This document shows, piece after piece, positions 1,918 through 36,050 of a stretch of DNA of 64,000 nucleotides (its first letter is position 1; every line of letters starts with the position of its first letter). The notes beneath the pieces are model-generated. The model saw nothing but the letters and a program-made list of their open reading frames with translations, made no database searches and was not told the origin of the DNA. Origin of the DNA: an uncultured Clostridia bacterium (GTDB lineage Bacteria > Bacillota > Clostridia > Oscillospirales > Acutalibacteraceae); contig CALBNX010000014.1 of the NCBI GenBank assembly GCA_937896885.1, positions 5,061 through 69,060 of the forward strand, in the 5' to 3' direction. The position numbers and the translations under genes were made by a program.

Positions 1918-2532
1918 ATGGAATTAAAACACTACACCAATATGTTCGTTATAACTTTTGTGTTGTTTTTTATTATTTCACTAATAATTGATTTGAAAAA
2001 AACATATACACATGAAAACATATCGTCAAAATTGATGACGCGAGAGAATGGAGAACAATATATTCTTGTGATGACATTTTCTTGGCAATTCAATAAACAA
2101 AAAAGGATTAGAGAATTGTTTAAGCAAAATAGCGTTTATACGAAGAATGATTTCAATTATGTTATAACTAGTTGCCTTAAAGACCAAAAGACAAGTTTGT
2201 TTACTCGTGATTTCGAATTTGGAGTTAAACCTATTGGGCAATCAAAATCCACAGATATAAAATATTTTATATATATTACAGGTAGGGATAATCTTACTGT
2301 TAATTTGAAAAACGCAATCAACTATAATGAGGTATATTCAGAAATATACAGAAGCAACATTGATAACAACGATAAAGAGTTATTACTTAAATATTTTAAC
2401 AGTCTTTCAAACGATGTTGCTTTCGACAAAGAAAATACCAACGCATTCCTTGAACTTCTTAGAAAATATGAGCCAGTATTTTCCTTTGCAGGCAGTATAA
2501 TTAGTATTATATCAGCTCTCCTTTCAATATAA
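1918..2532 (+). CDS. Hypothetical membrane-anchored protein
   Basis: An internal ATG at 1918 with RBS AAGAAGGA is preferred over the 1807 start. N-terminal TM helix FVITFVLFFIISLIIDL and a C-terminal hydrophobic tail. Confidence 0.5.
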   Translation: MELKHYTNMFVITFVLFFIISLIIDLKKTYTHENISSKLMTRENGEQYILVMTFSWQFNKQKRIRELFKQNSVYTKNDFNYVITSCLKDQKTSLFTRDFEFGVKPIGQSKSTDIKYFIYITGRDNLTVNLKNAINYNEVYSEIYRSNIDNNDKELLLKYFNSLSNDVAFDKENTNAFLELLRKYEPVFSFAGSIISIISALLSI

Positions 2533-2586
2533 TTATTAAAATCGAACTAAAAAGCATAACACTAATTAAAACTAATATTCTATACA

Positions 2587-2622
2587 AAACCGATGGTAAT
2601 TTACTATCGGTTTTATTTTTTT
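2587..2622 (+). terminator. Rho-independent terminator
   Basis: Stem AAACCGATGGTAA / TTACTATCGGTTT followed by TATTTTTTT. Confidence 0.7.
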
Positions 2623-2653
2623 GTCGCTTTTTTCTACTTTTTTGCATTTTATC

Positions 2654-2678
2654 TTACAATTGACTCTTAAAATTGTAA
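2654..2678 (+). promoter_or_regulatory. 9-7-9 palindromic site A (TTACAATTG-ACTCTTA-AAATTGTAA)
   Basis: Imperfect inverted arms around a 7 nt spacer. Belongs to a family of four sites (A-D). Lies 50 nt upstream of the 2728 start. Confidence 0.6.
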
Positions 2679-2727
2679 AATGTATTTGAGGTAAAATATA
2701 AATAAATATATATAGGGAGGATTGTTT

Positions 2728-5322
2728 ATGAAGAAAACTACAAATAAAATTTTAAGTATTATTTTATCGGTGTTACTCTTACTTTCAGTAATGCCAATGA
2801 CTGCTTTTGCGACTAGCTCTGTGGCATCTGTCAAAACAACTGATGGTGAAGTTACTGACTACACCGAGTTAACAGAAGCATTTTATGCTGCTGCAAAAAG
2901 CAAAGCTTCAACAATTACATTGTTAAATGATGTTGATTTGAATGGAAATGGTATTGAAATTTCTGAATACACAGGCTTTACATCTGCTGATTTTACTCTT
3001 GAATTGAATGGTAAAACAATTTCAAGTAGTGTCCATAGCAGTGTTTTAAGCACAGGTGAAAATATCATCATCACAATCAAGGATAGTGTTGGTGCGGGTG
3101 GAATCACAAATACAATGGTTAATGGTACCGCAGTTTCCGCTATTCTTGCCATGGGTAATGTTACAATAGAAAATGGTATTTTTACCGCAGAAGATACAGC
3201 CGTTTGTGTTTATAGCGGAAATGCAACAATCAATGGTGGTACATTCAATAGTGATATGTATGCAGTATCTGTCTATGGTGGTTTTTTAACTGTAAATGAC
3301 GGTGAATTTAACGGTGATTCATGCGGATTGCTGTTCACTGAAGAAATAATGTTCTATAAAACACAAGGCAAAGGAATAGTTTCTGGCGGTACATTCAATG
3401 GTGGTATTTCAATAGTTCATTCTGGCGATTTCTATCTTTTAGACGCAATAACTAATGGCTATGGTGTATTTACTCAAGACGGAACAGAAATTATAATTAC
3501 AGAAATGCAAAAATCTGTAAGTGGTAATATTACTATTAAAGAATCTGATAGTAAAAGAGAATATTCAGCGTGTTTAACAAGTGCTGACGGAGCAAAGCAG
3601 GAATTTGTTTCTTTTGATGAAGCTCATTCGGTTGCAATGACAAAGCCGGGTTCGGTTTTGACTTTATATAAAGACATTGAGGTTGACAACACTGTTTACA
3701 CACCAACAAAATTTGTAAAGCCTGATTTCACATTTGAATTGAATGGATATACAGTTTCAGGTAATTCAGACAGTTGTATTTTTGGATTAACAAAGAACGC
3801 AAAAATAACAATAAAAGATAGTGTCGGAACAGGCAAAATCATAAACACTAACGAATCGTTTGGTTCAGTTTTCAGTAATAGTGGTACATTGATTATTGAA
3901 AGTGGTATGATTATCAGCACAGCAAAATCTGCTATTGTAAATGATAATACAGTTATTGTATATGGTGGTTCAATAAGTGGTAAAGAATATGGTATTAAAA
4001 GTACAGGCAATATAACCGTTTACGATGGTGAAATTTCTGGTGGAAAGTTTGGCTTATATGCAAGCACAAAAACTGCTCCTGTTGCCACTCTTTATGGTGG
4101 AACATTTAATGGCGGTATTGACTTGAATCTTTTACCTGTTGGTTATACACTTGCAAATCTTCTTGCAGAAGGTCATTTCTATTATGATAGTGAAGATAAC
4201 AATATTACTGATTTTGGCGATTTCCAAGGAATTAATGATACTGTAATTGTTAAAAATAAATATCCAGTATCTGTTATTCAACCTGATGGCACAACTGAAT
4301 ACTTCCCTACTGTTGATGAAGGCATAGATAAAGCTAATAAAGATACGGATAGCATTTTAAAGCTTTTAAAAGATATTCTTTTGGATTCATCACTCATAAT
4401 TGACGGTAAAACTACTCTTGACCTTAATGGTAAAACAATTGAGGTTAAAGATGCTGTTTCAATTCTTGTAGAAAATGGTGCAATACTCAGTGTTAAAGAT
4501 ACTCTTGATAATGGCACAATTTGCGGAGGCACAGTTTCAGTTGATGGAGGTGCTCTCAATTTTAACAATGGCACAATCACAAGTACAACAAACGGTATTA
4601 CAAACTCTAGTGGTACTGTTAATGTTAACGGTGGTGAAATCATCTCTGAAAATGGCTATGTTGACATTTTTGTTGAGGGAGAAAATACTACCAAAATCTA
4701 TGGTGGCACTTTTAAGGATGGTTTCACAACATCAGGTGCAACTGTAAATGATATTCTCGCAGATGGCTATGTCTTCTATAATGGCGAAGGCGCTGTTGAA
4801 ATTAAAGATAATCAAAAAGTTGTTAGCGATAATGTTGTTGTTTATGAAAAAACAATCGTAACTGCTATGTCATCACAAATCAGATTCAATAGAAATAGTG
4901 ATGGTTCGTATGCTGAAACATTTGATGTAAGAACAAGAGCAAAAATCAGCGATGCAGACTTCAAAAAATATATTGCAGACACAACTGAAGAAGCAAGAAC
5001 TAAAATTACCAAAGTAGGTTTTGTTTATTCAAGAGCAACAACGGAATTCAATATCGAAAGCGCAAAAACGGTTGCACAAGGTGGAACTGTTACTGGATTT
5101 GTAGATGCACCTATAAGCTTCATTCAAGACGCCGATGGTTATTATATGTTTACTTGTATGGTAACAGGTGTAACAGAAGAAGATATTGATAATGGTCTTA
5201 CAACTTATGCATATATCTGTGTTGAAGACACTTGGTATTTCTTCCCTGTCGAAACAACAGCAGAATTTAGTGATTTATATTGCAATTACTATCCTCTCGC
5301 TGCTGAAAAATACGGTTGGTAA
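2728..5322 (+). CDS. Secreted repetitive surface protein (beta-helix-like internal repeats)
   Basis: RBS GGAGGA then ATG at 2728. Signal peptide MKKTTNKILSIILSVLLLLSVMPMTAFA. Three repeats of the pattern (E/D)LNG(K/Y)T..., followed further along by I(T/K)..KDS(V/L)G.G.I.N; Gly/Asn/Thr-rich. Confidence 0.7.
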   Translation: MKKTTNKILSIILSVLLLLSVMPMTAFATSSVASVKTTDGEVTDYTELTEAFYAAAKSKASTITLLNDVDLNGNGIEISEYTGFTSADFTLELNGKTISSSVHSSVLSTGENIIITIKDSVGAGGITNTMVNGTAVSAILAMGNVTIENGIFTAEDTAVCVYSGNATINGGTFNSDMYAVSVYGGFLTVNDGEFNGDSCGLLFTEEIMFYKTQGKGIVSGGTFNGGISIVHSGDFYLLDAITNGYGVFTQDGTEIIITEMQKSVSGNITIKESDSKREYSACLTSADGAKQEFVSFDEAHSVAMTKPGSVLTLYKDIEVDNTVYTPTKFVKPDFTFELNGYTVSGNSDSCIFGLTKNAKITIKDSVGTGKIINTNESFGSVFSNSGTLIIESGMIISTAKSAIVNDNTVIVYGGSISGKEYGIKSTGNITVYDGEISGGKFGLYASTKTAPVATLYGGTFNGGIDLNLLPVGYTLANLLAEGHFYYDSEDNNITDFGDFQGINDTVIVKNKYPVSVIQPDGTTEYFPTVDEGIDKANKDTDSILKLLKDILLDSSLIIDGKTTLDLNGKTIEVKDAVSILVENGAILSVKDTLDNGTICGGTVSVDGGALNFNNGTITSTTNGITNSSGTVNVNGGEIISENGYVDIFVEGENTTKIYGGTFKDGFTTSGATVNDILADGYVFYNGEGAVEIKDNQKVVSDNVVVYEKTIVTAMSSQIRFNRNSDGSYAETFDVRTRAKISDADFKKYIADTTEEARTKITKVGFVYSRATTEFNIESAKTVAQGGTVTGFVDAPISFIQDADGYYMFTCMVTGVTEEDIDNGLTTYAYICVEDTWYFFPVETTAEFSDLYCNYYPLAAEKYGW

Positions 5323-5459
5323 ATCAATTTAGGTTATTATATAGTGAGTTTTGTTAAAAATCTTGCTGTTATAATAAAAAGTCACTCTGGACGGTACAAA
5401 AACATACAATTACACCATCTTTTTCGTTCAGAGTGGCGACTTTAAAGAAAGGCAATATT

Positions 5460-5579
5460 ATGAAGAAATATACACCACCTGATTTCGATATAACTATTTT
5501 TAAAATTGAAGATATTATCACTGCATCGTCACCTACCTTTGGAGACCAAGACCCCAATGGAGATGACTGGTGGGGATAA
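5460..5579 (+). CDS. Unannotated 39 aa small ORF (MKKYTPPDFDITIFKIEDIITASSPTFGDQDPNGDDWWG)
   Basis: ATG at 5460 preceded by AAAGAAAGG, stop TAA at 5577-5579, hairpin GCACCGATAAAATATTATCGGTGC downstream. The minus-strand track ORF 5369..5587 overlaps it and looks less plausible. Confidence 0.35.
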   Translation: MKKYTPPDFDITIFKIEDIITASSPTFGDQDPNGDDWWG

Positions 5580-5657
5580 AATAACAATTAAAATTCAACA
5601 AAAAAAGCATGAAGCACCGATAAAATATTATCGGTGCTAAAAATTACATACTTTTAT

Positions 5658-5684
5658 TGTCACAAAAAGTCAAATTATTTCGAT
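5658..5684 (+). promoter_or_regulatory. ECF-sigma-type promoter motif, copy 2
   Basis: TGTCAC 5658-5663, 17 nt, CGAT 5681-5684, then TTATATAT. Points into site B and ORF 5846. Confidence 0.55.
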
Positions 5685-5791
5685 TTATATATAAAAGGGA
5701 TACTTATAAGTATATGTATTCAAAATTCTTTCAAATGGAAATAGTAACCTTGTTTCTATTTGAAAAAGTTTTGAAAAATAAAACAAACAAC

Positions 5792-5816
5792 TTACAATAA
5801 CCTCTTATTATTGTAA
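5792..5816 (+). promoter_or_regulatory. 9-7-9 site B (TTACAATAA-CCTCTTA-TTATTGTAA)
   Basis: Perfect 9 bp inverted arms with an asymmetric 7 bp spacer. The reverse complement of site C is identical at 24 of 25 positions, including the whole spacer. Confidence 0.65.
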
Positions 5817-5845
5817 ATAATATTAAATCGTGTGGGAGATAACTT

Positions 5846-6844
5846 ATGACAGAAAGTTTAAAGTACGCCTTTTCTATAAAGCGAGTAAAAAAGACTAACG
5901 ATATTGATTATATAAATGCAATTAAGATATACAATGAAAATATTCCTTTTGATATTAGAACAGATTCTAATGAAATCACATCTTGGTTAAATGAAGATTT
6001 AAACAAATCTCCGTTTGTACCATATTGTTTTATACTTTATTTTAATAATGAAGTAGTTGGCTTTGCTATGGAAACGTATATAAAGCGAACTAAAATTATG
6101 GTTGGAGAATATATAACTTTACAAAACGAATTTCATTCAGAAACTGTTTTATTTACATTTTTAGATTTAATGCATAATTATTATCGAATAAATAATATCG
6201 ATATTTCTTATTTTGTTGATGAAATAAGTAATAAAAATTCAGGTAATAGTGTCGATAAAGAAAGTAAACTTTTTAAAAAAATGCTATGTGTTCAAGGCTT
6301 TGGAGAAATTGATGCACCATATACAACATTGCCTTTGGGCTTAAATAATTTTGAAAGTTCCTTTGATGCAAAGATTTTTATTAAATCTAATGATGAACTT
6401 AAACTTATTTCAAAAGAAACATATCTTTCTATTGTTGAATCTATTTACTATGATTACTTTATTGTTTGGTATAAGGATATGTTTACTGAGAGAGAAAAAA
6501 CAAAATACAAACAGAAAGTTGATTGTTTTTTCAAAAGCATATCAGACGATTTAATTAAAGAATCTGAATTAGAGATAAAATTTGTCGATTGTCCTGTTTT
6601 AAAGGAAAGTCAAGATTCATACAAGACAATAAACATCCCAAATCGCAAACAATCAAACATATTAAAATGGCTTTTTATAATATTAGTATTGATTGTACTT
6701 CCACCTATAATAGCTTTAATTTATACAAGCATATTAAACTTTCTACATATTGAAACAAATACAGTTAGTTCTTTATTAGGAGAAAGTTTAAGTGGTTTAT
6801 TAACTTTTATTTCAGCATATGTAATATATAAAAAGGCTCTATAA
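5846..6844 (+). CDS. Hypothetical protein with a C-terminal membrane anchor (possible GNAT-like N-terminal fold)
   Basis: RBS GGGAGA. C-terminal TM segments WLFIILVLIVLPPIIALIYTSIL and LSGLLTFISAYVIY. The N-terminal segment YCFILYFNNEVVGFAMETYI is only weakly acetyltransferase-like. Confidence 0.5.
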   Translation: MTESLKYAFSIKRVKKTNDIDYINAIKIYNENIPFDIRTDSNEITSWLNEDLNKSPFVPYCFILYFNNEVVGFAMETYIKRTKIMVGEYITLQNEFHSETVLFTFLDLMHNYYRINNIDISYFVDEISNKNSGNSVDKESKLFKKMLCVQGFGEIDAPYTTLPLGLNNFESSFDAKIFIKSNDELKLISKETYLSIVESIYYDYFIVWYKDMFTEREKTKYKQKVDCFFKSISDDLIKESELEIKFVDCPVLKESQDSYKTINIPNRKQSNILKWLFIILVLIVLPPIIALIYTSILNFLHIETNTVSSLLGESLSGLLTFISAYVIYKKAL

Positions 6845-7543
6845 TTTTTTTAATGCAACTATTATATTTCCTGAATATTTTTTTAGAGTAGGGATATAGT
6901 TAGCAAGTTTATCTAACTTTGAAAACTTTATTGCTATGTTATCATTTTTAGCGAATAAACCATCAAAAATATGAAATCCACTCACATTGATAATTTCTAT
7001 ATTAAAACTATTTATAATTGATAAGATATATTGATAAGAGTATATCCACTGTCTATGTTCTTTTCCCAAATAAGGGGTTTTAATAACTGCCGTGTCCTTT
7101 TTGAAGTTTTTACTAAATAGGTATTCAAAACCATTACTATTTTCAAATTCAATTATAATTAATCCATTACTTTTTACTACTCTGATAAGTTCGGAAATAG
7201 ATAATATCGCATCCGTGTAATTTATAACACTTCCGACACATATTGCACCGTCAAAAGTATTATCAGCAAATGGGATTTTTTCAATACTCGCTACTGTATA
7301 TTCATCACAATGACATATTTTATTTTCTGCTATATCAATATGATGCATTCGGCAATCTATATCGTATGTATTTCCTGCAGAACCAGCATTTAATATGTAA
7401 TTATTTTTATGCAATGGTATTAATAATTTTTTTAAATATGCTGAAATATAAGAATAAGAGTATTTATACCAAGGTGAGTTTGACCAAACATTATTAGCAT
7501 CCTCATAAAATTTCTTTATTTCATCTATATTAAAATCACTCAT
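6839..7543 (-). CDS. Class I SAM-dependent methyltransferase
   Basis: Start at the internal M (MSDFNIDEIKKF) with RBS AAGGAAAC. Motif I-like ILNAGSAGN and a Methyltransf_11-like segment FDGAICVGSVINYT. Converges on and overlaps ORF 5846-6844 by 6 nt. Confidence 0.65.
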   Translation of the reverse strand: MSDFNIDEIKKFYEDANNVWSNSPWYKYSYSYISAYLKKLLIPLHKNNYILNAGSAGNTYDIDCRMHHIDIAENKICHCDEYTVASIEKIPFADNTFDGAICVGSVINYTDAILSISELIRVVKSNGLIIIEFENSNGFEYLFSKNFKKDTAVIKTPYLGKEHRQWIYSYQYILSIINSFNIEIINVSGFHIFDGLFAKNDNIAIKFSKLDKLANYIPTLKKYSGNIIVALKKL

Positions 7544-7555
7544 TTTATTGTTTCC

Positions 7556-7580
7556 TTTCAATAATAAGAGGTTATTGTAA
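7556..7580 (+). promoter_or_regulatory. 9-7-9 site C (TTTCAATAA-TAAGAGG-TTATTGTAA), an inverted copy of site B
   Basis: The spacer TAAGAGG is the exact reverse complement of the site B spacer CCTCTTA. The site abuts the methyltransferase RBS. Confidence 0.65.
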
Positions 7581-7607
7581 ATTGGTTGCTATAAAAAACA
7601 TCATAAT

Positions 7608-7639
7608 AGAAAAAGTCATCCCCTAACTTGAGATGACTT
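7608..7639 (-). terminator. Terminator-like hairpin reading on the minus strand
   Basis: Stem AAGTCATC / GATGACTT with a T-run (TTTTTCT) on the minus strand. It sits just outside site C and could insulate the methyltransferase from leftward read-through. Confidence 0.35.
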
Positions 7640-7682
7640 CAAATAAACATAATTATTAAATAAATATAAGGAATGTATCATT

Positions 7683-8384
7683 ATGGAGTTATTGTTATAT
7701 AGAAGTTATTTAAAATATTTGAAAGAGAATAAAATACCCGTATCTGAAGCTCTTAAAAGAATACCAAAACTTATGATAGTGCTTTTAGTAGCTCTAATAC
7801 TATCTGCAATAAGCGCAGTAGTTGTCCTCTATATAGAGCAAATTAGACAATACTTTTTTGTACCATTAGGAGTAGAAGCTATTGTTTCACTGATAGTCTT
7901 TTCATATGCACAGCATTACGAAATTAAGAATAGTGATAAAGATATAAAAGCACACAAAAAATATTGTGAAGCATTATACATATGGTTGGAAAAATCTTTG
8001 ATTTCTGTTGAGTCAAAAGATATAGTTGAATTAAAATCTCGAATGGATAGTCGATTGGAAAAATATGCAGAAACACAGCAAAGAACAACTGATATTATAA
8101 TGCGTTTTATTCAAACACTAATTATACCCGTTATTTTAACTGTATTAACGGTTATATTGAATAATCAAATCGATATTAATGTGATTTTAGCATATGGCTT
8201 TGTCGCTATAATGCTTTTATGTTTCTTCATTGTAACTTTATTCGGCTTTGTTTCTTTCATTAATTTAATTAGAAAAAACGAGTACGAAAAAATGAATAGC
8301 TTTTCTAAAGACTTACAAAGCATATTGGACACACAATTTGAAGATGGCATATTTGCCAAAATAGATGTAAAAGAACAAAAATAA
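7683..8384 (+). CDS. Hypothetical multi-pass membrane protein
   Basis: TM helices LMIVLLVALILSAISAVVVLYI, FVPLGVEAIVSLIVFSY, LIIPVILTVLTVIL and AYGFVAIMLLCFFIVTLFGFVSFI. Confidence 0.5.
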   Translation: MELLLYRSYLKYLKENKIPVSEALKRIPKLMIVLLVALILSAISAVVVLYIEQIRQYFFVPLGVEAIVSLIVFSYAQHYEIKNSDKDIKAHKKYCEALYIWLEKSLISVESKDIVELKSRMDSRLEKYAETQQRTTDIIMRFIQTLIIPVILTVLTVILNNQIDINVILAYGFVAIMLLCFFIVTLFGFVSFINLIRKNEYEKMNSFSKDLQSILDTQFEDGIFAKIDVKEQK

Positions 8385-8410
8385 TTTTAATTATAAAAAT
8401 ATTCAAAAAC

Positions 8411-8435
8411 TTACAATAATCAATAGTTATTGTAA
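8411..8435 (+). promoter_or_regulatory. 9-7-9 site D (TTACAATAA-TCAATAG-TTATTGTAA)
   Basis: Perfect arms (10 bp if the flanking C/G pair is included) with a different spacer. Lies 71 nt upstream of the recombinase start. Confidence 0.6.
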
Positions 8436-8505
8436 GAAAGCTAACAAAAATCCTCATAATTTGATAAAATAGGTCGTATCTTATCAAAATATGAGGTGTT
8501 TTTAT

Positions 8506-9414
8506 ATGGAGAACTTGAATTTATATGCAGAAGAGTGCATTTCTGTTATGAAATCTACAAAAAACATATCGGATTATAGTAGTTTGGCATACAGTTCTGA
8601 TTTGAATGATTTTATTGAATTTTGTGGTGGTGAGATTGACAACAATATTTTAGTCAAATATGTATCTTATCTATCACAGGACAGACATCTGTGTGATACT
8701 ACGATTAGCCGTAAATTGATAACGTTAAAAATGTTTTTTGAGTATCTATACAGTAAAAATCTCATAGAACAAAACTATTATCAGAACTGTCATTTCAAAT
8801 TTCGTAAGGAGCGAAAATTACCTAAAACTCTATCTAAAACAGAAACAGCCGAGCTTCTTAAAACTGCAACAGCAGAAAGAAACTCGGCTAAAAGTAATCC
8901 TGAAGTATTGCGAACGTCAAGGAATTTGGCACTTATCGATGTGCTTATAAGTACCGGCATAAGAATTGGTGAAGCATCAGCGATTTCATTGGATGATATT
9001 ATTGAATCTGAAAAGACTTTGCTTATTCATGGAAAAGGTCGTAAACAACGATTGATATACATTTCTTGTGATGAGACATGGAACAACCTTAACAAATGGT
9101 TGAATATCAGAAAGGAAATGGATATCCCTACTGATAAACTTTTTGTCAATCGTAGTGGTAATCAACTTGGCATTCATGGTATCGAATACATATACAAGCG
9201 AATTAAAGAAAACGCTGGCATCAATCCATCTTCTACCCCTCACTATTTGCGACACACCTTCGCAACAAACCTATTATCAAACGGTGCAGATTTGCGTTCA
9301 GTACAAGAGTTGTTGGGTCATAGCAGTGTTGCAATTACAGAAATCTATACCGAAATCACAACACAGAGAAAAAAGGAAGTATTAGATAAATATAACTTTA
9401 GGAATAGCTTATAG
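8506..9414 (+). CDS. Tyrosine site-specific recombinase, XerC/XerD-like
   Basis: N-terminal SAM-like core-binding domain. Catalytic signature: STGIRIGE (R), HGKGRKQR (K), HYLRHTFATNLL (HxxR), LLGHSSVAITEIYTE (H...Y). RBS GAGGTG before the ATG at 8506. Confidence 0.85.
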   Translation: MENLNLYAEECISVMKSTKNISDYSSLAYSSDLNDFIEFCGGEIDNNILVKYVSYLSQDRHLCDTTISRKLITLKMFFEYLYSKNLIEQNYYQNCHFKFRKERKLPKTLSKTETAELLKTATAERNSAKSNPEVLRTSRNLALIDVLISTGIRIGEASAISLDDIIESEKTLLIHGKGRKQRLIYISCDETWNNLNKWLNIRKEMDIPTDKLFVNRSGNQLGIHGIEYIYKRIKENAGINPSSTPHYLRHTFATNLLSNGADLRSVQELLGHSSVAITEIYTEITTQRKKEVLDKYNFRNSL

Positions 9415-9477
9415 CAATAGTAAAAAATATTAAGTTCATTACTATTGATTTAATAAAGGGATAATAAACCATGTATA

Positions 9478-11154
9478 TTAAAAATCAATATTGTATTTTT
9501 TTAACAACTGATTTTTATTGTAATATACGATTATTTTTTTTAAACTTTCTACCGCATTTTTAATGTCAATATATTGGATTTTTTGAGTAATATGCCGAAG
9601 TGTTTCTATCCAAAGTCTTAGAACGATTTCTATTTCTTTTGAATCAATATATCTTTCTTTTGAAATAGAGTTTTTCTGAAGTGTTGGTATGATATCTTCT
9701 ATATCCTTACAATTGTCCAAATGACTACAAATGTAGTCTAAACTGTCTTGTTCTAATTTGTATTTTGTCAACAAGTTAATTAAGCCATTATATATATCCG
9801 AACAAGGCAACTTACAAGTATTCAAAGAATAATAATCTTGTAATTTACAAACAACTTTTATCAGATCATCATTAGAACAAATGCGATTATAGTCAAATTG
9901 AACATTTTCACACTTTTTTAAAGCTGAACATATATCTGGGCTACTCTTGTTCTTTAAATGTTTCGCCAACTCTTTGATTAAAACATTGTCTATCCAATTA
10001 GTTGTCTCCTGTACTGTCCAAAACTTTTCATTACGTGAAGCTTCATGAATATAATAAGGCTTTAGAACAAATTGAATTTCAGGCTCACCAACTCCACAAC
10101 TTGAATTTATTTGAACTAGTGAAATTATTGCGCATAGTTTCATTCCCTGTTCAATTCTTATTTGGAAACGATCAATAAATATATTAAAATCATTTATACT
10201 TTTTATTTTATCAACGATGTTAGATAGGAGCATATAGAAATAATAACTGGTTTTAAACAGTACAATTCCATCACGACACACTTCATAGTTGCTCAAATTA
10301 TGTTTGTTATCTATTTCATTTAGTGAATTTATGAATTCATCATAGTATTTATCTATTATTTCACATAACTGTTTAGTATCTGCTTCAGGCAAAACAAAAA
10401 TTGTATTGTTAAGTGTAATGAAATATTCATTGTTCATCATATTCTTTTTAATGAATGCTCTATAACCATATTTAATATCAGTATGCACACCTGAAAATAA
10501 TTTATATATGTTATTATTTCCATAAACTGTAAATAAGCAGTTCCGTATCTTTAGTGAGCGAAATTCGAATGAACATTTAGCGTTCATATTTTGGAAATCT
10601 GGTAATGTTCCTTTAAAACTTATTTTACTATAAGACATTGAAATAGTTTTTTCAGAACAAAATATTTCATTAGTTTTATATTCATCTTCGTAATCAAATA
10701 TATCATCTAAAATAATATCAATTGCTTGTTCCATGTCTTCATCTTCCATGTATTTGAGTTTTTGGGACAATTGTGCAGCCGTTTCTGTTATCTCAACATC
10801 TTTATTGTATTTTTCAATTTTTCTCAGAACTTCATCATAATTTTTTTTTGCTGCTTCAAGTGCATCAATAATTCGAGCTTTGTTAATCTTATTACTTTTT
10901 CGAATATTCGTTCCTCTACGTGTTGGAACATAGTTAAATAGACTATCGCATTCAAAATCAATAGGAGCACCAACATCTTTTAGCAATCTTGCAAGTTCTT
11001 CTTTATTATCAAAAGAATGAACAGGTATAATATGGTCTATTTCCATCTCTCTATACTTTATTTTTTCACCTCGATAGAAATCCTCATATCCATATACTTC
11101 CCACAAAGCCGTTCTAACATCTGTATCGGAAGTTCTGTATTTTCGTGTTTTCAT
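9478..11154 (-). CDS. HNH-nuclease fusion protein (N-terminal HNH domain, ~470 aa uncharacterised C-terminal region)
   Basis: Start at MKTRKY with RBS AAGGAGAT. HNH motif EIDHIIPVHSF...LFNYVPTRRGTNIRKSNK. No recognisable motif in the rest. Confidence 0.65.
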   Translation of the reverse strand: MKTRKYRTSDTDVRTALWEVYGYEDFYRGEKIKYREMEIDHIIPVHSFDNKEELARLLKDVGAPIDFECDSLFNYVPTRRGTNIRKSNKINKARIIDALEAAKKNYDEVLRKIEKYNKDVEITETAAQLSQKLKYMEDEDMEQAIDIILDDIFDYEDEYKTNEIFCSEKTISMSYSKISFKGTLPDFQNMNAKCSFEFRSLKIRNCLFTVYGNNNIYKLFSGVHTDIKYGYRAFIKKNMMNNEYFITLNNTIFVLPEADTKQLCEIIDKYYDEFINSLNEIDNKHNLSNYEVCRDGIVLFKTSYYFYMLLSNIVDKIKSINDFNIFIDRFQIRIEQGMKLCAIISLVQINSSCGVGEPEIQFVLKPYYIHEASRNEKFWTVQETTNWIDNVLIKELAKHLKNKSSPDICSALKKCENVQFDYNRICSNDDLIKVVCKLQDYYSLNTCKLPCSDIYNGLINLLTKYKLEQDSLDYICSHLDNCKDIEDIIPTLQKNSISKERYIDSKEIEIVLRLWIETLRHITQKIQYIDIKNAVESLKKIIVYYNKNQLLKKYNIDF

Positions 11155-11331
11155 ACTAACATCTCCTTGTGAATTTGCGATTTTAATTACATTAATTATA
11201 TAAAAAAATAAAAATTTTTTCAATTAGAGAAATCTTGCTATATAAGAATTTTTATCAAAAGTTCATAAATTTATCTTTTCTGCTGTGTATTTTCAAGTGA
11301 GTAGTTCACTTTCTCCTATCGTAATGACAGG

Positions 11332-17958: not shown

Positions 17959-18213
17959 TTATAACAATTTGAATAATAGACTACTTGTTGCACCATTTGT
18001 TCTATATCTTTGTTCGGTTTCAAGCATTCGTTCTTTTCTTAAATCATTAAGAGCTCGTCTGACTGTTGATTGAGACATTTTCAAATCTTTCGAAATTGTG
18101 GCTATTGACGGCCAACATTCATTCTTTTCGTTGGCTCGGTCATATAGATACAGATATACAAGAACTGCTCGACTTGGTAATTCTGATTGATACACATGTT
18201 TTAATTTACCCAT
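17959..18213 (-). CDS. Helix-turn-helix DNA-binding protein (ICE regulatory or accessory)
   Basis: Winged-HTH-like segment SIATISKDLKMSQSTVRRALNDLRKERMLE. Overlaps the coupling-protein gene end. Confidence 0.6.
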   Translation of the reverse strand: MGKLKHVYQSELPSRAVLVYLYLYDRANEKNECWPSIATISKDLKMSQSTVRRALNDLRKERMLETEQRYRTNGATSSLLFKLL

Positions 18214-20071
18214 TTTTCATCGCCTCCGCTATTGTTCTATGTTTTGTTATGTGGTTTACTGGCACTATACGCAATTGTGTCTTATCTTTTCCATTTTTAT
18301 GTTGTGTCATCTCGTGTTCATCTGTATTAGATTCATTTGTTTCATGATGCAACCATTCAGGATGAAATTTAGCAACAATAGTGCCCATCAATTCTTTTCG
18401 TGAAGCATATTCGACTTTCCTATTTGCATTATCTGATACGATATATGGTTTGCTCTCATCAAATTCTATTCCCCATTCAAAGAATAACTTGAGTTTTGTT
18501 TTCATTGGATTAACACCTGTTTTCATTACAATAAACTGTCCTTTAGGTAGTGATTTGAGTTCATCAGGAGTCATCAATGGTCTTTCAATCATCTGCAAAC
18601 TCTGTGATGGGTCATTCTTACCACGAGATACTGAACCAGACATTACCGTTCTGCTACCTAATGCTTTAGATAATTCTTCGGCAGAACTACTATTAGGTGC
18701 AAATCCACCGAACAAGGTTATCTGTGTATTATCTACAATAATATCAGCACCTTCTTTTCCATAGTTCTTTTCAAGTTGTCTAAAAGATTGAATAATAGGT
18801 ATAATCTGTAATCTACGGGAACGAGAAGCACTAAACATCATTTCTGCAGACTCAATCTTTGGTAGCGTACCAAACTCATCACAGAAAAATACACATCTGT
18901 TTTTGAGTTTACCACCTTGTTCATCGGCTACTGCAAGTATTTCACGATATAACTGTTGGATAATAAGAGATACCATAAAGAATGTGTTAGGATTTTCTTC
19001 AGGCATATTGATAAAGATTGCACACTTTTCTGAGCAGAACTTTTCGGCATCTATTTCGGTATCAAAACACAATAATTGCTCTAACTCTGAATCAAGAAAA
19101 GTATTCAGTCTTGATAATGCTGTACTCATAACACTCGCCATTGTATTTTCGGAAGTAGTGAGAGCCGCACCTGCGAACCACTTTGCTTTATGGTCATCAG
19201 GTAACATAGATATCAAGTTTTGAAATTGATTTTTACCTTTCTCTTGTGTTGGTTCAAGAAGTTCTTGTATGACTTTGAATACGGACACAATATGCCTTTT
19301 GCTTGGCTCACAAAATTCTGCTACAAGCAATATTGTTGCAGTAAGGATACCTTCTGCCGCATCGTAGAAATACGCATTTTGTCCGAATGAAGCGGCATCC
19401 ATACCTGATAAGATAATTGTTTTGGATATAATCTTGGCATATTTCTCTGCTTGTGCTTTGTAAGAGAGTTTATCCGGATTAGCGATATACAAGTCCATAT
19501 ACTTGTTAACGAGGTGCAAGAGGTTGTTTCCGTTTGAACGAGTGGGGTTTCTTAAATCAATTACTGCTACACTATAGCCATAGTCTTTTGCTATGTAGCC
19601 ATAGTTTCGCATAATATCTCCTTTGGTATCAGTTGACAGAAAAGACATACCCGAAGCCAAAGCATATTCTATACAAGGATATAACCAATAAGCAGTTTTA
19701 CCGACACCTGCCGCACCAATCATCAATACATGAACATCTCCTGTATCAACCAATGCAGTTGTGTTATGTTTTCCACCTTTGCAACCTACAACAATTCCTT
19801 GTGGTAATGGTTGTTCTTTCTTTTTTACTGATGCAGTTGGATTTTTGCCTTTTAATGCTTGTTTACGCCATTTTTTCGGAGTGAATAGAACATATTTGTA
19901 AGTCTTCAGTAACTCGGATTTAGTTGCCCATCGAGCAGTACCGTGTTGTCCGTCACCGACAGTTTTGCTCTTAATATTATTCAGGTTGTATATGTGAGTA
20001 ATAAGAGATATACCACCGAGAATACAGAACATTACCCCAAAGGCAATAATCAAAGTTGTAACGCTTGACAT
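18206..20071 (-). CDS. Type IV coupling protein (VirD4/TraG family)
   Basis: N-terminal TM helix, Walker A GAAGVGKT, Walker B-like VFFCDEFGTLP, ~620 aa. Confidence 0.85.
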   Translation of the reverse strand: MSSVTTLIIAFGVMFCILGGISLITHIYNLNNIKSKTVGDGQHGTARWATKSELLKTYKYVLFTPKKWRKQALKGKNPTASVKKKEQPLPQGIVVGCKGGKHNTTALVDTGDVHVLMIGAAGVGKTAYWLYPCIEYALASGMSFLSTDTKGDIMRNYGYIAKDYGYSVAVIDLRNPTRSNGNNLLHLVNKYMDLYIANPDKLSYKAQAEKYAKIISKTIILSGMDAASFGQNAYFYDAAEGILTATILLVAEFCEPSKRHIVSVFKVIQELLEPTQEKGKNQFQNLISMLPDDHKAKWFAGAALTTSENTMASVMSTALSRLNTFLDSELEQLLCFDTEIDAEKFCSEKCAIFINMPEENPNTFFMVSLIIQQLYREILAVADEQGGKLKNRCVFFCDEFGTLPKIESAEMMFSASRSRRLQIIPIIQSFRQLEKNYGKEGADIIVDNTQITLFGGFAPNSSSAEELSKALGSRTVMSGSVSRGKNDPSQSLQMIERPLMTPDELKSLPKGQFIVMKTGVNPMKTKLKLFFEWGIEFDESKPYIVSDNANRKVEYASRKELMGTIVAKFHPEWLHHETNESNTDEHEMTQHKNGKDKTQLRIVPVNHITKHRTIAEAMKNG

Positions 20072-23877: not shown

Positions 23878-24195
23878 ATGAATAAAAAAGAACTATATGA
23901 ACTAAAAAAAGATTTTGAATTTGATTGTTATTTACATGATGACATTTCATATCTCTTTATGAAATATGGCTTCTATGTCTGTATGATATTTTTTGCACTT
24001 AATGCTATTTTCGGTATATCGTCCATTGTTACCTATATTATTATTGGAGATGTTTTTGCTTTAATATTTTCAACTTTAATATCTGCACTTCTTTCTTTGC
24101 TTGGTGCTTTTGTACACATTGTAGGATTGGTAATTTTTAATATTAAATTCAGACAAAAATATCATTACTATAAATATGAAATTTTCTGGCCTTGA
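23878..24195 (+). CDS. Small membrane protein
   Basis: RBS GAGGTGA. Two long TM helices (FYVCMIFFALNAIFGISSIVTYIIIG; LISALLSLLGAFVHIVGLVIF). The 3' end overlaps the convergent relaxase gene. Confidence 0.5.
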   Translation: MNKKELYELKKDFEFDCYLHDDISYLFMKYGFYVCMIFFALNAIFGISSIVTYIIIGDVFALIFSTLISALLSLLGAFVHIVGLVIFNIKFRQKYHYYKYEIFWP

Positions 24196-25574
24196 GCAAT
24201 TTGCTTTTCTTCAATCTTTTGTTGAAGTTTCTTTTCGATGTGTTGATTGATATTATCGTTTTTCTCAATTTCATATTGTATGATTTGAGAAATTCGAGCA
24301 AACAATCTTAACGAGGAAAGAGTAATTGAAGTCGCTGAAACCATGTTATTTACATAACCTTTATGCGATGTCACTTTTGAAGTGGCATCGCTTTTTTGTG
24401 CTCGGACATTATTCTTTATCTCTTTTGTGGTATCTTCAACTACTTCTTGTTGTTCATCTTCTTGTGAGATAAGTTTGAATACTTCATTTACAACTGCATT
24501 ACGAATACTTTTGAATTCTTTGTTTTGTGATAATGGAATCTTCTTTGGCAAATTATCCATATATGTAAGAATAACATTGTTCCTTTGCTCATACCACAGC
24601 GCATACAAAGCAGAGACTTTTTCGTCCTTTGCAATTTCATCAACAATAGCATCAACAATATTTTTAGTTGATTTAGGAAGATAACCATATACCTTTCTAC
24701 CTGTATAATCACCAAGCTCGTTAGTAAGTTTTTTGAATAACATTTCAACTGTTTTATTTCCATAATTACTTTTACTAATTTGCTCACTAATATCGTTGAT
24801 TATTTCTCTACTGCGTTCTTTAATATTGTCACGATATATAGTTTGTTTTGAATAAACTTGTAACAAATCTTGCCTGAATATATCTCTCGCAAATGCAGAC
24901 TTGAGTTTAAGAATTCCTTGTTCTGTCATATACGGTTGCTTGCCTACAGAATAAGCTACCACATGAACATGGGGATGATGACCTTCGTTATGGAATGCCG
25001 CATACCATCTTAAATCTTCAATAGGAATTTTCATGCTCTCTGCTATTGCTGGAACATTAGAACGGATTAACTTTTGCCAAGCATAAGAGTTATCATATCC
25101 TAATCGTTCTGCATCTTCTCTTTTTAAAGATATAATATCAGTCCAGACTATGCCTTCGTGATTAGCAACCGTTTCTGAAACTTTTGATAGATTAATTGGT
25201 ACATTATCATCAGTAAACAAGCCGTGAGAACCTAGTTTTTCAACTCTTGGTCTTTTAGCAATGTACTCAACATACTTTTTTCTTTGATTTATGACTTCAG
25301 GATTATCTTCAATAGCACGAGCTATGAATTCAGAAGCATTTTTTCTTGTCGGTGAAGACAAATAATCTTTGTATTCAAAGTTTGAAGCTGTATCGTTCAA
25401 GTCTTTCAATATTTCTTTAATCAATCTTTGCTGTTCAACAGTTGCAGGCAAGTGTTCCCAAGAGTCATCTTTCTTTTCTACACCATCTCTTGTAGCTATA
25501 TAGTTGATTAAATTTTTTGAATGTTTAACTTTACCCGATTTGATGTATCTGCATTTTAATATTATCTTAGCCAA
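24168..25574 (-). CDS. Relaxase (MobL/MOBP-like mobilisation nuclease)
   Basis: TTG start with RBS AAAGGAAA. N-terminus AKIILKCRYIKSGK, histidine cluster FHNEGHHPHVHVVAYS. Position next to the candidate oriT and an RHH-like accessory gene. Confidence 0.7.
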   Translation of the reverse strand: MAKIILKCRYIKSGKVKHSKNLINYIATRDGVEKKDDSWEHLPATVEQQRLIKEILKDLNDTASNFEYKDYLSSPTRKNASEFIARAIEDNPEVINQRKKYVEYIAKRPRVEKLGSHGLFTDDNVPINLSKVSETVANHEGIVWTDIISLKREDAERLGYDNSYAWQKLIRSNVPAIAESMKIPIEDLRWYAAFHNEGHHPHVHVVAYSVGKQPYMTEQGILKLKSAFARDIFRQDLLQVYSKQTIYRDNIKERSREIINDISEQISKSNYGNKTVEMLFKKLTNELGDYTGRKVYGYLPKSTKNIVDAIVDEIAKDEKVSALYALWYEQRNNVILTYMDNLPKKIPLSQNKEFKSIRNAVVNEVFKLISQEDEQQEVVEDTTKEIKNNVRAQKSDATSKVTSHKGYVNNMVSATSITLSSLRLFARISQIIQYEIEKNDNINQHIEKKLQQKIEEKQIAQGQKISYL

Positions 25575-27775: not shown

Positions 27776-28809
27776 ATATTTTCCTCCTGTTCTAAATATT
27801 CGATATATGGTATTTTCAACCAATGTGTCCAAGCGATTGAGGATAACCTCGTCCGTATAACTCCCACTTGAGTATTAGCTGCCTGAATGACTTCTCCTTT
27901 ACCTATGTAGATACCAATATGACCTTCGTGCCAAACACCAAGTCCCGGTATTTCAGGTAGCGTATCAATTGTTCCTTTTTCAGTTGCATTGTCAAACATA
28001 TTGTCTGCACCAATGTCAGGCATATTGTTTGAACCGATAATCGTCTTCTTATTCTCTGTATCGTACCAACTGTAACCTTTTATAAGACCTACACAGTCTG
28101 CAGTTCTCTTACCGAGCCAGTTGGAAGTTATAAATTCAACATTGTTTCCAACCATATCGGGATATTGCTCTGCTTTAAGTTCAAGCATAGTTTTGTCAAG
28201 GACTGTTCCATATGTACCATAAACATATCCCCAATGATTATCTGCCGCATTGATGGCCCATGTAACAAGGTCGAGATTGTTCTTGGTTGTTGCATCCGCA
28301 TATCCTGATGTGTCAATGTAAACAGAACGGATACCGTTCATTATATTTGAGAAATCTTCAACAGACAAGTCTGTTCCAAAGGTTGAATTGACTTTTGAGA
28401 TTAACTGTTCATCAGTTTGATTGTCTGAAAAGCAAGCTGTTAGTTTTGAAACAAAGTCATTCTGTTTTGCATAATCAGAAAGCCCAAGTACATAAAGTAT
28501 CTGGGCTTCTTTTATCTGATTATTCGAATGACCTGCATCAGTCATTGATGCTTGAATATTATTCATTGTGTCTTCGACAAACTGTAACTTTGCTTGTTCT
28601 TCTGTAGTTAAACTTGATATAACGGTTTCTTTGATTCCGCTTGTATCTAATTCAATATTGCCACTGAAAAAATACACAACTGCCACTATTGGCATAAGCA
28701 AGCCCACCACAACAGATAAAACCATACAGAGAATCTTTTTCAAGGTTTCGGGTTCTGTAACAATAGCAAGTGCTATCTTCTTTAAGGCGGTGGCAACGGT
28801 AGCAGACAT
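27772..28809 (-). CDS. NlpC/P60 (C40) peptidoglycan hydrolase of the transfer apparatus
   Basis: N-terminal TM helix. C-terminal C40 signature RTADCVGLIKGYSWY...VWHEGHIGIYIG. Confidence 0.75.
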   Translation of the reverse strand: MSATVATALKKIALAIVTEPETLKKILCMVLSVVVGLLMPIVAVVYFFSGNIELDTSGIKETVISSLTTEEQAKLQFVEDTMNNIQASMTDAGHSNNQIKEAQILYVLGLSDYAKQNDFVSKLTACFSDNQTDEQLISKVNSTFGTDLSVEDFSNIMNGIRSVYIDTSGYADATTKNNLDLVTWAINAADNHWGYVYGTYGTVLDKTMLELKAEQYPDMVGNNVEFITSNWLGKRTADCVGLIKGYSWYDTENKKTIIGSNNMPDIGADNMFDNATEKGTIDTLPEIPGLGVWHEGHIGIYIGKGEVIQAANTQVGVIRTRLSSIAWTHWLKIPYIEYLEQEENI

Positions 28810-35700: not shown

Positions 35701-36050
35701 AGACCATATTTCTCAAAGCGAGCAAGATTTGGAGCTTTGCCTGAAACTGTTGACACATTTACAACAGTTTCTGTACCTTCATTTGCAAAACCTGTATCAT
35801 AACTGATATTTGATAAGATACTATCAGCTACCATTGAACCGTATTTCTTGAAAATTTGTCCGTTATCTTTTAAGCCCTGCACATCGTATCCTGTATATGC
35901 CAACGCATCAAGATAGACATTATCAAGCATTTCATCGGGGATATCCGAAGCAGGAGCCGCAAATACCGTAACTGGAATTGTTGAAAATACCGATATTACG
36001 GCAAGAATAACTGCAAGTAATTTTTTGATATTAATATTTTTCTTGAACAT
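32793..36050 (-). CDS. Cell-wall-anchored adhesin with an N-terminal NlpC/P60- or CHAP-like domain and tandem Cna-B/SpaA-type repeats
   Basis: Signal peptide. Cys/His hydrolase-like segment GLCCASYCSYVY...VSHVGLYAG. Seven or more repeats of the G..F.(L/V)....(G)(T/K)Y.(V/L).E...P.GY type. C-terminus IPNTD followed by a TM helix and RKDEE (sortase-signal-like). Confidence 0.75.
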   Translation of the reverse strand: MFKKNINIKKLLAVILAVISVFSTIPVTVFAAPASDIPDEMLDNVYLDALAYTGYDVQGLKDNGQIFKKYGSMVADSILSNISYDTGFANEGTETVVNVSTVSGKAPNLARFEKYGLCCASYCSYVYFNYLPNIAGVGTSDYIRPTNLKSSGAWSTAAEKWVESGLAREIKFKQSSDGKTFTADEEIPIGSLIVFTASGTVSHVGLYAGKYNGKNFITHVGNSRGPEIITLEGLSKNGAAELVSSVIVPEIIEENGVIEIYKKDTNGKALSGAVFVATHKETGIQYKIGPTNSNGYAVSQERLPYGTYTVKETVFPTNYQASGQSEWTVTVNSSNKGTVTINAINEQIPGKVQIVKTSEDNKIDGISFRIIGNGVDKTVKTENGGKITISDLKPGTYTITETVEDKYEPQETRTVTVVSGQTSTITFNNTLKRGNLEVTKTSEDGLNEGVKFHLYGTSHSGLKVDEYAVTDKNGIAIFNDVLIGNNYTLEEVDTDSKYVVPESQNANIQWNKITEKSFHNVLKKFTVTVTKTDAEKGYAQGDATLSGAVYGVYYGEKLVDKYTTDANGKFTTKEYVCGDNWTLREITASEGYLLDETVHKICAESKNYTVEKNTLSMNVTEQVIKGNIAIIKHSDNGSTQIEHPEVGAEFQVYLKSAGSYNKAKETERDAIVCDKNGFTQTKDLPYGTYTVHQTKGTEGREFIADFDVVINTDGQTYRYLINNANLESYVKVIKKDSETGKTVPYAGAGFKIYDPDGKLVTMTYTYPTPTTIDTFYTDANGSLITPERLPYGKGYSLIEVQAPYGYVIDRNPVSFDITADTAKEDGGIIVVVIEVENKPIRGTIVGKKIDEDGFAIAGAVFGLFNESETEFTEETALMISTSNEIGVFGFENVSYGKWIIHELKSPPSFKLNPTVYKVKVMEDGEVIELVVENKFILGSVEVTKVDEDNPEIKLSGAIFELYVDVDGNKEFNPEIDILIGELKEDEVGVYIMNDLRHNGYFIHEKSAPDGYIKDNDYHYFEITEDGMLIELKITNEKIPKPKVPVPDIPNTDASWRLSFWVGMTAIAFGGLVAYVIITIKRKDEE

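Follow-up and report, generated by a model that had tools for sequence, protein, structure and literature searches.

The 64-kb stretch of DNA considered here (the window, from an uncultured Clostridia bacterium of the family Acutalibacteraceae) contains a 1.74-kb cassette of two convergent genes, which lies between two inverted 25-bp sites, B (5792..5816) and C (7556..7580), close to the gene of a Xer-like tyrosine recombinase, and which occurs in the opposite orientation at a related locus of another metagenome. The whole is best explained, in our opinion with good likelihood, by an inversion and cassette platform in which the B-C segment would behave as an either/or switch. Slots of this kind, able to flip and to swap their cargo and often holding anti-phage genes, are common in gut Firmicutes. 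An inverted recombination pair with its recombinase alongside had already been proposed for B and C in the first-pass annotation of this DNA, and the proposal is now backed by the inverted copy of the cassette (locus L038), by the covariation of the site spacers, by arm sequences that track the subfamily of the recombinase and by a conserved terminator.

Locus L038 was found by an exact-protein look-up with the methyltransferase of the window, and its 1.74-kb B-C cassette, 99.7% identical to ours, is inverted between flanks that are collinear with the window at 80-82% identity, the breakpoints lying inside the 25-bp sites. The inner arm of C carries a single variant base (TTTCAAT), and in the inverted copies L038-L040 this variant arm is still the one next to the methyltransferase, which is what exchange inside the site would give. 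The cassette of L009 keeps the window orientation, at 97% identity. Three more cassettes occur in both orientations with respect to the recombinase, those of L001/L010 (99.8% identical over all 4723 bp), L007/L011 and L026/L054. In this line, a further species (the parAB species) carries a 60%-identical cassette between parB-parA and recombinase-smpB-recR-ybaB-dnaX, which is in one state in eight contigs and in the other in two, with 96-99.6% identity in the flanks and 99.9% in the cassette. Both state-2 contigs (L078 and L080) have the same nonsense mutation in the methyltransferase arm, which changes E17 to a stop at position 6644; in this dead-methyltransferase lineage it is the other arm that stands next to the promoter.

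Some contig ends bear on the same question. Contigs L039 and L040 begin at 33 and 8 nt, respectively, ahead of one site; a further 22 nt lead to the last base that the two alternative inner arms have in common, for totals of 55 and 30 nt. Both of them end 3 nt past the other site, on GTT, which in L038 (from the same study as L040) is the prefix common to the right flank and the reverse-complemented left flank. Such ends fall at de Bruijn branch points for k=55 and k=31, which we take to be the values of SPAdes and Logan, respectively, and the breaks would reflect the presence of both orientations in one sample. Moreover, in 16 of 68 clusters of arm homologs the longest contig measures only 1.66-1.90 kb, 41 of 94 P0006 blocks hold only contigs shorter than 2 kb, and two such short contigs that were inspected both end at sites.

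The first-pass annotation had reported four 25-bp sites, and all of them were recovered exactly in position and sequence: A (2654..2678), B, C and D (8411..8435), to none of which a strand is assigned. Site B reads TTACAATAA-CCTCTTA-TTATTGTAA and is the left boundary of the cassette and the endpoint of the inversion that separates the window from L038, and C, the right boundary, has the spacer TAAGAGG, the reverse complement of that of B. Reverse-complemented C and B again agreed at 24 of 25 positions, the full spacer included. When the window was scanned for the pattern TTACAAT-N11-ATTGTAA with up to two mismatches, seven matches were found against a mean of 1.81 in 100 dinucleotide shuffles, none of which reached seven, and the four good matches (0, 0, 1 and 0 mismatches) all lie within 2654-8435. 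Of the 9-7-9 geometry initially described, the layout of inverted arms holds, and its dimensions had to be refined with 59 distinct related sites, whose arms span at least 10 bp around a variable centre of 5-7 bp, with the consensus C-TTACAATAA-[C/T]NNNNN-A-TTATTGTAA-G.

In the related loci, a D-type site is usually paired, 1.8-5.7 kb upstream, with a site of exactly reverse-complementary 7-bp centre. There are 35 such pairs, which carry 12 different centres, CTATTGA, CTATAAA, TACTTAA, CTGTTAA and CCTCTTA among them. Tyrosine recombinases need matching crossover regions for exchange. The spacers of B/C and D (TCAATAG) differ, and therefore these sites belong to two independent switches and not to the four-site shufflon that had been considered. 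Site D, noted in the first-pass annotation as preceding the recombinase gene, does not control this gene by inversion: it borders a second slot, empty in the window and filled in L001, L003 and L005. The alignment of L001 and L005 with the window reaches D, is interrupted by 4.7-5.1 kb that these loci have between D and a distal site, and is taken up again at the recombinase, so that D reads as the recombinase-proximal site of a second cassette slot. A search of the window for its partner, with CTATTGA between degenerate arms, gave a single match at 47129 with 7 of 18 arm positions mismatched; with no credible partner in the window, D is therefore a solo site. Sites of classes 2 and 3 (see below) are absent from the rest of the window, and a search for partners of the solo C-type sites in L001 and L005 was negative.

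Site A, 50 nt 5' of a gene for a protein of 864 amino acids (aa), shows perfect outer 7+7 bp and a spacer equal to that of B at six of seven positions. Five central positions are nevertheless changed, namely 8, 9, 10, 17 and 18 (AAC to TGA, TT to AA), among which 8, 9, 17 and 18 are invariant in 59 other sites and position 10 is there always C or T and never A. Moreover, no related locus has a counterpart of this site. Because of these central changes and of its absence from all relatives, site A is unlikely to take part in the switch as had been suggested, and it is probably an inactive, relic or locked site.

The sequence of the arms changes with the subfamily of the recombinase, whereas an ATAA-N7-TTAT core is common to all classes. 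The class TTACAATAA-N7-TTATTGTAA occurs with recombinases at least 56% identical to that of the window (Fimenecus, the gut clade and relatives), CAAATAA-N7-TTATTTG with those at 41-50% identity (Acholeplasmataceae, a Bacillota metagenome-assembled genome (MAG) and Enterococcus sp. AZ126), and GGATAA-N7-TTATCC with the recombinase of the parAB species, at about 31%. An imperfect GGATAA-type version, AGATAA-N7-TTATAA, was found in a Chitinispirillales MAG, also at about 31%. In viral contigs, a scan for the class-1 site gave 18 solo palindromes, none with the flanking C..G, conserved spacer ends, a partner or a recombinase, and these look like chance matches. A site GGATAA-N7-TTATC is nested in the shared leaders at both cassette ends of L054 (4743-4765), L011, L024, L055 and L060, and the same sequence is a working inversion site in another species (L075, 4962-4979 and 6708-6725); this nesting of second-class sites in class-1 leaders suggests passage between platforms of different specificity. 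In L103, a 56-nt inverted repeat (1-56 and 1743-1798) extends from the site through the leader to the fourth codon, and both arms therefore begin with MERL.

The recombinase gene (8506..9414, plus strand) encodes the presumed invertase. Its assignment as a XerC/D-like protein was borne out by matches to PF00589 (E 1e-35) and PF02899 (E 1.4e-7), in keeping with a catalytic domain at the C-terminus and a SAM-like core-binding domain at the N-terminus, and by six intact catalytic residues, which align to those of Escherichia coli XerD (TGIRIGE, GKGRKQR, HYLRHTF, GHSS and IYTE at the catalytic positions). Its best solved relatives are XerA, XerD and XerH. The protein falls below the NCBIfam equivalog cut-offs of XerC (215.5 against 335 bits) and XerD (202.5 against 329.6), and the integron-integrase model TIGR02249 matched only its C-terminal 65 residues (96.9 bits, cut-off 265). 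Orthologs linked to sites were found in about 70 loci, 37 from genomes and 32 from metagenomes, the hosts of the former including Candidatus Fimenecus, other Acutalibacteraceae, Ruminococcus-like MAGs and Acholeplasmataceae, and most loci have a copy of D some 95 nt 5' of the recombinase gene. Locus L083, on the chromosome of Enterococcus sp. AZ126 (2,662,639-2,673,643), places the recombinase with a cassette of GNAT-transmembrane protein and methyltransferase in a cultured isolate, next to genes for a type I restriction HsdR and for a phospholipase-like protein.

The two convergent open reading frames previously described within B-C are indeed present and start just inside the sites. Arm 1 (5846..6844, plus strand, 30 nt inside B) encodes a 332-aa membrane protein, modelled by AlphaFold with a GNAT fold at about residues 1-210, a helical linker and two C-terminal transmembrane helices (predicted local distance difference test 82). 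Foldseek matched it to GNAT enzymes with a target TM-score of up to 0.78, and its homologs form 68 clusters, none of them named. Arm 2 (6839..7543, minus strand, 13 nt inside C) was correctly identified as a class I methyltransferase dependent on S-adenosylmethionine (SAM), with a PF08241 match (E 9.9e-9), and the arm-1 family accompanies it in every homologous cassette examined. The same anatomy holds for all 27 distinct cassettes. The genes at each end point inward from the site, with a first ATG at a distance of 5-110 nt, and the two arms abut or overlap at their 3' ends; there is no room for a promoter inside. In many cassettes the inner flanks are identical for 15-50 nt, and both arms therefore share the leader and the ribosome-binding site.

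Signals in the flanks were predicted from consensus matches. At 5771..5798 on the plus strand, a candidate fixed promoter (TTGAAA-16-TACAAT, matching 10 of 12 consensus positions) points into B, with its -35 TTGAAA outside the site and its -10 TACAAT in the outer arm, which inversion would not move; this flank motif is conserved in L007 and L038. It is a better candidate than the promoter claimed at 5658-5684, which a promoter scan did not recover. The site itself was also considered as a self-contained promoter, and its best reading (cTTACA-17-TAAGTT) matched only about 7 of 12 positions and left the idea unsupported. On the other side, the minus-strand terminator announced at 7608-7639 was found at 7612..7640, facing inward 23 nt outside C, where it is predicted to block leftward transcription into the cassette. 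In all four loci of the B-C type a terminator faces inward 23-26 nt outside C and none is present outside B, with two unrelated stem sequences in the same position, and L033, L056 and L075 have one 27-35 nt outside the distal site. Over the four B-C loci, L033, L056, L032 and L075, only one of the two sites has a terminator able to block inward transcription, at 10-35 nt on its outer side. Moreover, in the human-gut clade, the parAB species and Enterococcus, a near-consensus extended -10 promoter is predicted between the proximal site and the recombinase gene, reading into the cassette (TTGAAT-17-TGaTATAAT and TGATATAAT are examples, and TGcTATCTT in the parAB species). The layout with a promoter on one side and a terminator on the other is clear in about eight loci and absent or unclear in the rest, and such one-sided signals suggest an either/or switch.

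Altogether, a mechanism can be proposed in which the Xer-like recombinase would bind C-TTACAATAA-N7-TTATTGTAA-G sites as a homomer and exchange strands within the asymmetric 7-bp centre. Sites recombine only with matching centres, so that B and C form a private pair and D belongs to an independent second slot. With a fixed promoter outside B and a terminator outside C, the arm on the B side would be transcribed and the other one read antisense, and inversion would swap the active arm. Arm 1 is predicted to be ON in the window because it is promoter-proximal, and arm 2 OFF because it is promoter-distal and behind the terminator, so that the GNAT arm would be active here and the methyltransferase arm in L038. 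Over evolution, the cargo between paired sites is replaced wholesale and moves between species, with sites and spacer staying in place.

This turnover of the cargo can be followed in several lineages. The cassettes of L001 and L010, sites included, are 99.8% identical, compared with 79% for their recombinase genes and left flanks that cannot be aligned, and those of the window and L038 share 99.7% identity against about 81% in the flanks. In the gut clade, strains with recombinase genes 96-99% identical and both flanks in common carry at least four unrelated cargos (L048, L053, L054 and L060) or none (L061), with identical sites and spacer whatever the cargo. The second slot of Fimenecus has held four cargos under the spacer CTATAAA (L001, L004, L007 and L038), and the first one two under CCTCTTA. 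Empty slots keep one complete site, in either spacer orientation (TCAATAG in the window, TACTTAA in L061). As these comparisons indicate, cargo bounded by the sites has been replaced wholesale between strains and moved between species. Engineered cassette exchange with inverted lox or FRT sites resembles the turnover seen here.

Surface phase variation, a part of what was first imagined for this locus, is not its theme: the window would toggle a GNAT-fold membrane protein and a methyltransferase, and its relatives carry genes of immune type. In L003 and L005, a TIR, TPR arm faces an arm with radical SAM and ATP-grasp, and in L001 a class III aminotransferase faces a SIR2-AAA/STAND protein. ThsA (SIR2-STALD) occupies one arm in L004 and L012, with a TIR arm opposite (seen in L012; ThsB-like). 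A TIR arm is also found opposite radical SAM in L017 and opposite a P-loop kinase-like protein in L033 and L038b. Other cassettes combine a pentapeptide arm with ATP-grasp and/or radical SAM (L007a, L024, L049 and L053), a large unknown protein with an enzyme dependent on pyridoxal phosphate and similar to serine hydroxymethyltransferase (L014, L019 and L021), or a GT2 arm (plus a pyruvyl transferase in L008) with an unknown or HEAT-repeat protein (L007b, L008 and L025). Over 67 arm proteins the domain counts are TIR_2 7, SIR2_2 3, STALD 2, radical SAM 6 and ATP-grasp 7, and PADLOC matched ThsA (E 4e-143), ThsB, Dsr2, TIR-TM and other candidates. The cargo of L004 and L012, as distinct from that of the window, has the make-up of Thoeris, with PF18185 and PF13289 in one arm and TIR_2 (E 1.9e-13) in the other, and a complete Thoeris pair is split over both arms of one cassette in L012/L013 (7683-9905) and in L004 (7682-9907). 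One arm tends to be effector-like and the other enzyme-like, and the pairings recur. In one strain of the parAB species (L073, 8377-10946), a second convergent pair, coding for a radical SAM protein of 360 aa and a TIR protein of 493 aa, lies downstream of the recombinase and resembles the cassette of L017.

Several observations weigh against the switch as read above. ThsA and its ThsB-like TIR partner occupy opposite arms, and the combinations of effector and enzyme recur; both points suggest arms that function jointly, which does not sit well with strict either/or expression. Matches to promoters are not enriched over shuffles, the promoter and terminator assignments are consensus matches, and no terminator was detected on either flank in most loci. 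Moreover, the mechanism explains no route by which a cassette bounded by inverted sites would enter or leave a slot, and both state-2 contigs found in the parAB species have one single-nucleotide polymorphism in common and count as one lineage. The leading alternative, which we hold to be unlikely on balance, is an integron-like exchange slot in which both arms would always be expressed from promoters in the flanks or the sites, inversion being a neutral by-product. Joint action of opposite arms would suit it, as would identical leaders at both ends, which allow expression independent of orientation, the many loci with no detectable flank terminator and a cargo that is replaced within species and common to different ones. 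However, the readable signals are one-sided, with a promoter on one flank and on the other a terminator so near the site (10-35 nt) that a promoter has no space there. The tail-to-tail overlap with no internal terminator, seen in 27 of 27 cassettes, argues in the same direction: a co-directional operon would serve co-expression better, and none was seen. Both orientations, furthermore, persist in populations.

The remaining explanations fare much worse than the switch or the exchange slot. The palindromes could be operators, an alternative raised in the first-pass annotation, bound by a repressor or by the recombinase as a mere regulator with no recombination at all. It would agree with this that every site is found in a 5' leader and always points the same way with respect to its gene, as would D, which also in empty slots stands 5' of the recombinase gene and could mediate autoregulation by binding. 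An operator, however, has no need of exactly reverse-complementary centres kilobases apart; this covariation over 35 pairs and 12 spacers excludes the operator reading, and the inverted segments with breakpoints in the sites contradict it as well, leaving it very improbable. Equally improbable is a reading of the cassettes as small mobile elements akin to transposons, with inverted repeats at their ends, which came to lie by chance near a recombinase gene and whose inversions are independent insertions in either orientation. Identical cassettes bounded by repeats in different species, and second-type sites nested in some leaders, would be in keeping with such elements; against them, no transposase was found in any of the 27 cassettes, the slot is always the same one beside a recombinase ortholog, with outer arms that are part of the flank and one full site kept when empty, and the window has no solo copies elsewhere. 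Finally, an origin of the inversions in assembly errors at inverted repeats can practically be discarded: all comparative data are short-read metagenome assemblies, but the identical repeat of 18-25 bp is shorter than the assembler k-mers (k119 and k141 in contig names, and the presumed values of SPAdes and Logan), and the differences in orientation recur across independent samples and studies, one of them linked to a private polymorphism.

As regards the surroundings of the cassette, the 864-aa gene downstream of site A (2728..5322, plus strand) encodes a secreted repeat protein with a signal peptide, a neighbour rather than a demonstrated part of the switch, which gave no match in Pfam, NCBIfam or PADLOC and has no homolog in related loci. 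Between the two slots, an open reading frame at 7683..8384 (plus strand) encodes a 233-aa membrane protein that is conserved in L001, L003 and L005, where it lies between C and the second slot's distal site. No exact-protein record was found for this protein or for the 864-aa one (866 aa in the first-pass annotation). A hairpin in the leader of the recombinase (8446..8503, plus strand; -19 kcal/mol, z -3.6), just outside D, includes the Shine-Dalgarno GAGG in its pairing and has a U-run behind it. Its palindrome is conserved in L001-L010 and L038, and it may act as an attenuator and a barrier to transcription both ways. A second long hairpin (5717-5777) lies just outside B. A search of 2400-9600 against Rfam gave only generic hairpin matches far below threshold, including these two, and a megablast of 2500-9500 against plasmids and phages gave no match.

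Further upstream, 86-769 encodes an RHS-core-like C-terminal fragment (motif YD...RYYSAEIGRFINTDD), followed by small membrane or unknown open reading frames at 778-1446 and 1807-2532, a layout that resembles a polymorphic toxin tip with immunity genes, with no Pfam match in any of them. Directly downstream of the recombinase, a minus-strand open reading frame of 581 aa (9419-11272) with a weak HNH_4 match is missing in L001, whose alignment jumps from window position 9419 to 11272, and L005 has about 8.6 kb of other DNA there, so that the DNA to the right of the recombinase is an indel hotspot as well. A conjugative-element gene set adjoins the platform at 11602-36050 and is partly conserved in L001. 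It comprises a 1767-aa protein with peptidoglycan-binding, glycoside hydrolase-like and dockerin features, a type IV coupling protein (18206-20071), a MobL relaxase (24168-25574), a VirB4/TraG-like ATPase (28809-30641) and a SpaA-repeat adhesin (32793-36050). A role of the recombinase as integrase of this conjugative element was considered and rejected, because other species carry the unit of recombinase, site and cassette among housekeeping genes.

Parts of this scheme have precedents. In the Mycoplasma loci vpma, vsp and vsa (with the recombinases Xer1, Mbr and HvsR), inversion brings a silent gene behind a single fixed promoter (PMC2268961). By mechanism these appear to be the closest known systems, with the G segment of phage Mu and the C segment of P1 also close. 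The likeness is one of organization and lies in an adjacent Xer-like recombinase, found in about 70 loci here, and in sites placed in the 5' leaders of alternative genes. Mycoplasma loci differ in holding paralogous surface lipoproteins and a single type of site, any pair of which recombines, whereas our slots contain two unrelated genes each (GNAT against methyltransferase, TIR against radical SAM), a private spacer and an immune or enzyme cargo subject to horizontal exchange. The Mu G and P1 C segments, inverted by Gin and Cin, respectively, contain two opposed gene sets, with a fixed promoter outside and the invertase gene adjacent. They share with the present locus the invertible segment, its two alternative gene sets and the neighbouring invertase, but depend on serine invertases, an enhancer and Fis, and 34-bp repeats, and they vary tail fibres with a constant 5' exon. 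In contrast to this Din family, the locus of the window has a tyrosine recombinase only and complete genes with their own start codons, with diverse cargo.

Shufflons of the R64 type have in Rci an adjacent tyrosine recombinase and in sfx short sites with a 7-bp centre (PMC11852207). Their sites are asymmetric with one common centre and shuffle several segments at the 3' end of pilV, whereas the present locus swaps entire genes and has symmetric arms and a centre particular to each slot. Integrons, including chromosomal ones with anti-phage cassettes, comprise a tyrosine recombinase gene, a divergent promoter and promoterless, compact and variable cassettes rich in defence genes. The resemblance extends to a platform of recombinase gene, divergent promoter and recombination site and to cassettes that are promoterless, compact, variable between strains and enriched in defence; the difference is that no attC hairpin sites are found here, where two-armed cassettes lie between inverted double-stranded sites in one or two slots and no long one-directional array is formed. 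Canonical XerC/XerD use a single 28-bp dif site (11-6-11) per replicon, in contrast to the inverted pairs, up to two per locus, described above. The pdif modules of Acinetobacter also consist of genes between inverted Xer-type sites, with identical modules in different replicon contexts (PMC6449649, PMC13141974). In both respects they resemble our cassettes, but they use 11-6-11 XerC/XerD hetero-sites on plasmids and the host XerCD, with no dedicated recombinase and no switch anatomy, whereas the present slots are chromosomal and have symmetric arms, a 7-bp centre and a recombinase of their own. The symmetric arms and asymmetric spacer are also those of Cre/lox cassette exchange, a laboratory design of what here is apparently natural. 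With heterospecific lox spacers, the spacer sets orientation and partner, and inverted identical sites allow flipping as well as exchange with a donor. The locus of the window fits the definition of none of the known families compared here.

The platform is not described in surveys of programmed inversions and gut invertons (PMC9881135, PMC11892184), and a full-text literature search of incomplete coverage found no prior description. The switching principle is known from Mycoplasma vpma and Mu G, whereas the cargo, the spacer-coded slots and the exchange of cassettes look new. More tentatively, with chances that we would put a little short of even, the loci may represent an undescribed and widespread class of platform in Bacillota, reaching Fibrobacterota, with one or two slots that are kept by a dedicated Xer-like recombinase and addressed by their spacers, and with horizontally exchanged immune or modification cassettes, a parallel in nature to recombinase-mediated cassette exchange, whose halves (ThsA and ThsB, or effector and enzyme) are transcribed alternately. 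Why partners such as ThsA and ThsB should occupy opposite arms of one switch is a puzzle in itself.

From a practical side, these short sites of 25-31 bp, which come in at least three arm classes and have 12 or more natural spacers, are candidate orthogonal recombinase and inversion tools. The slot also serves as a finder of defence genes through guilt by association, as integron cassettes and defence hotspots were used before, and its unannotated arms (the GNAT-transmembrane protein and methyltransferase pair, or proteins of 750-1030 aa) would, if the idea is right, be a rich source of new defence systems. If true, a bet-hedged and heterogeneous anti-phage defence would become testable in gut Clostridia, with Enterococcus sp. 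AZ126 as a tractable cultured carrier. Confirmation of the platform would reveal a new route to regulate and diversify immunity, in which whole defence genes are placed under a DNA flip switch and their cargo is swapped between strains and species.

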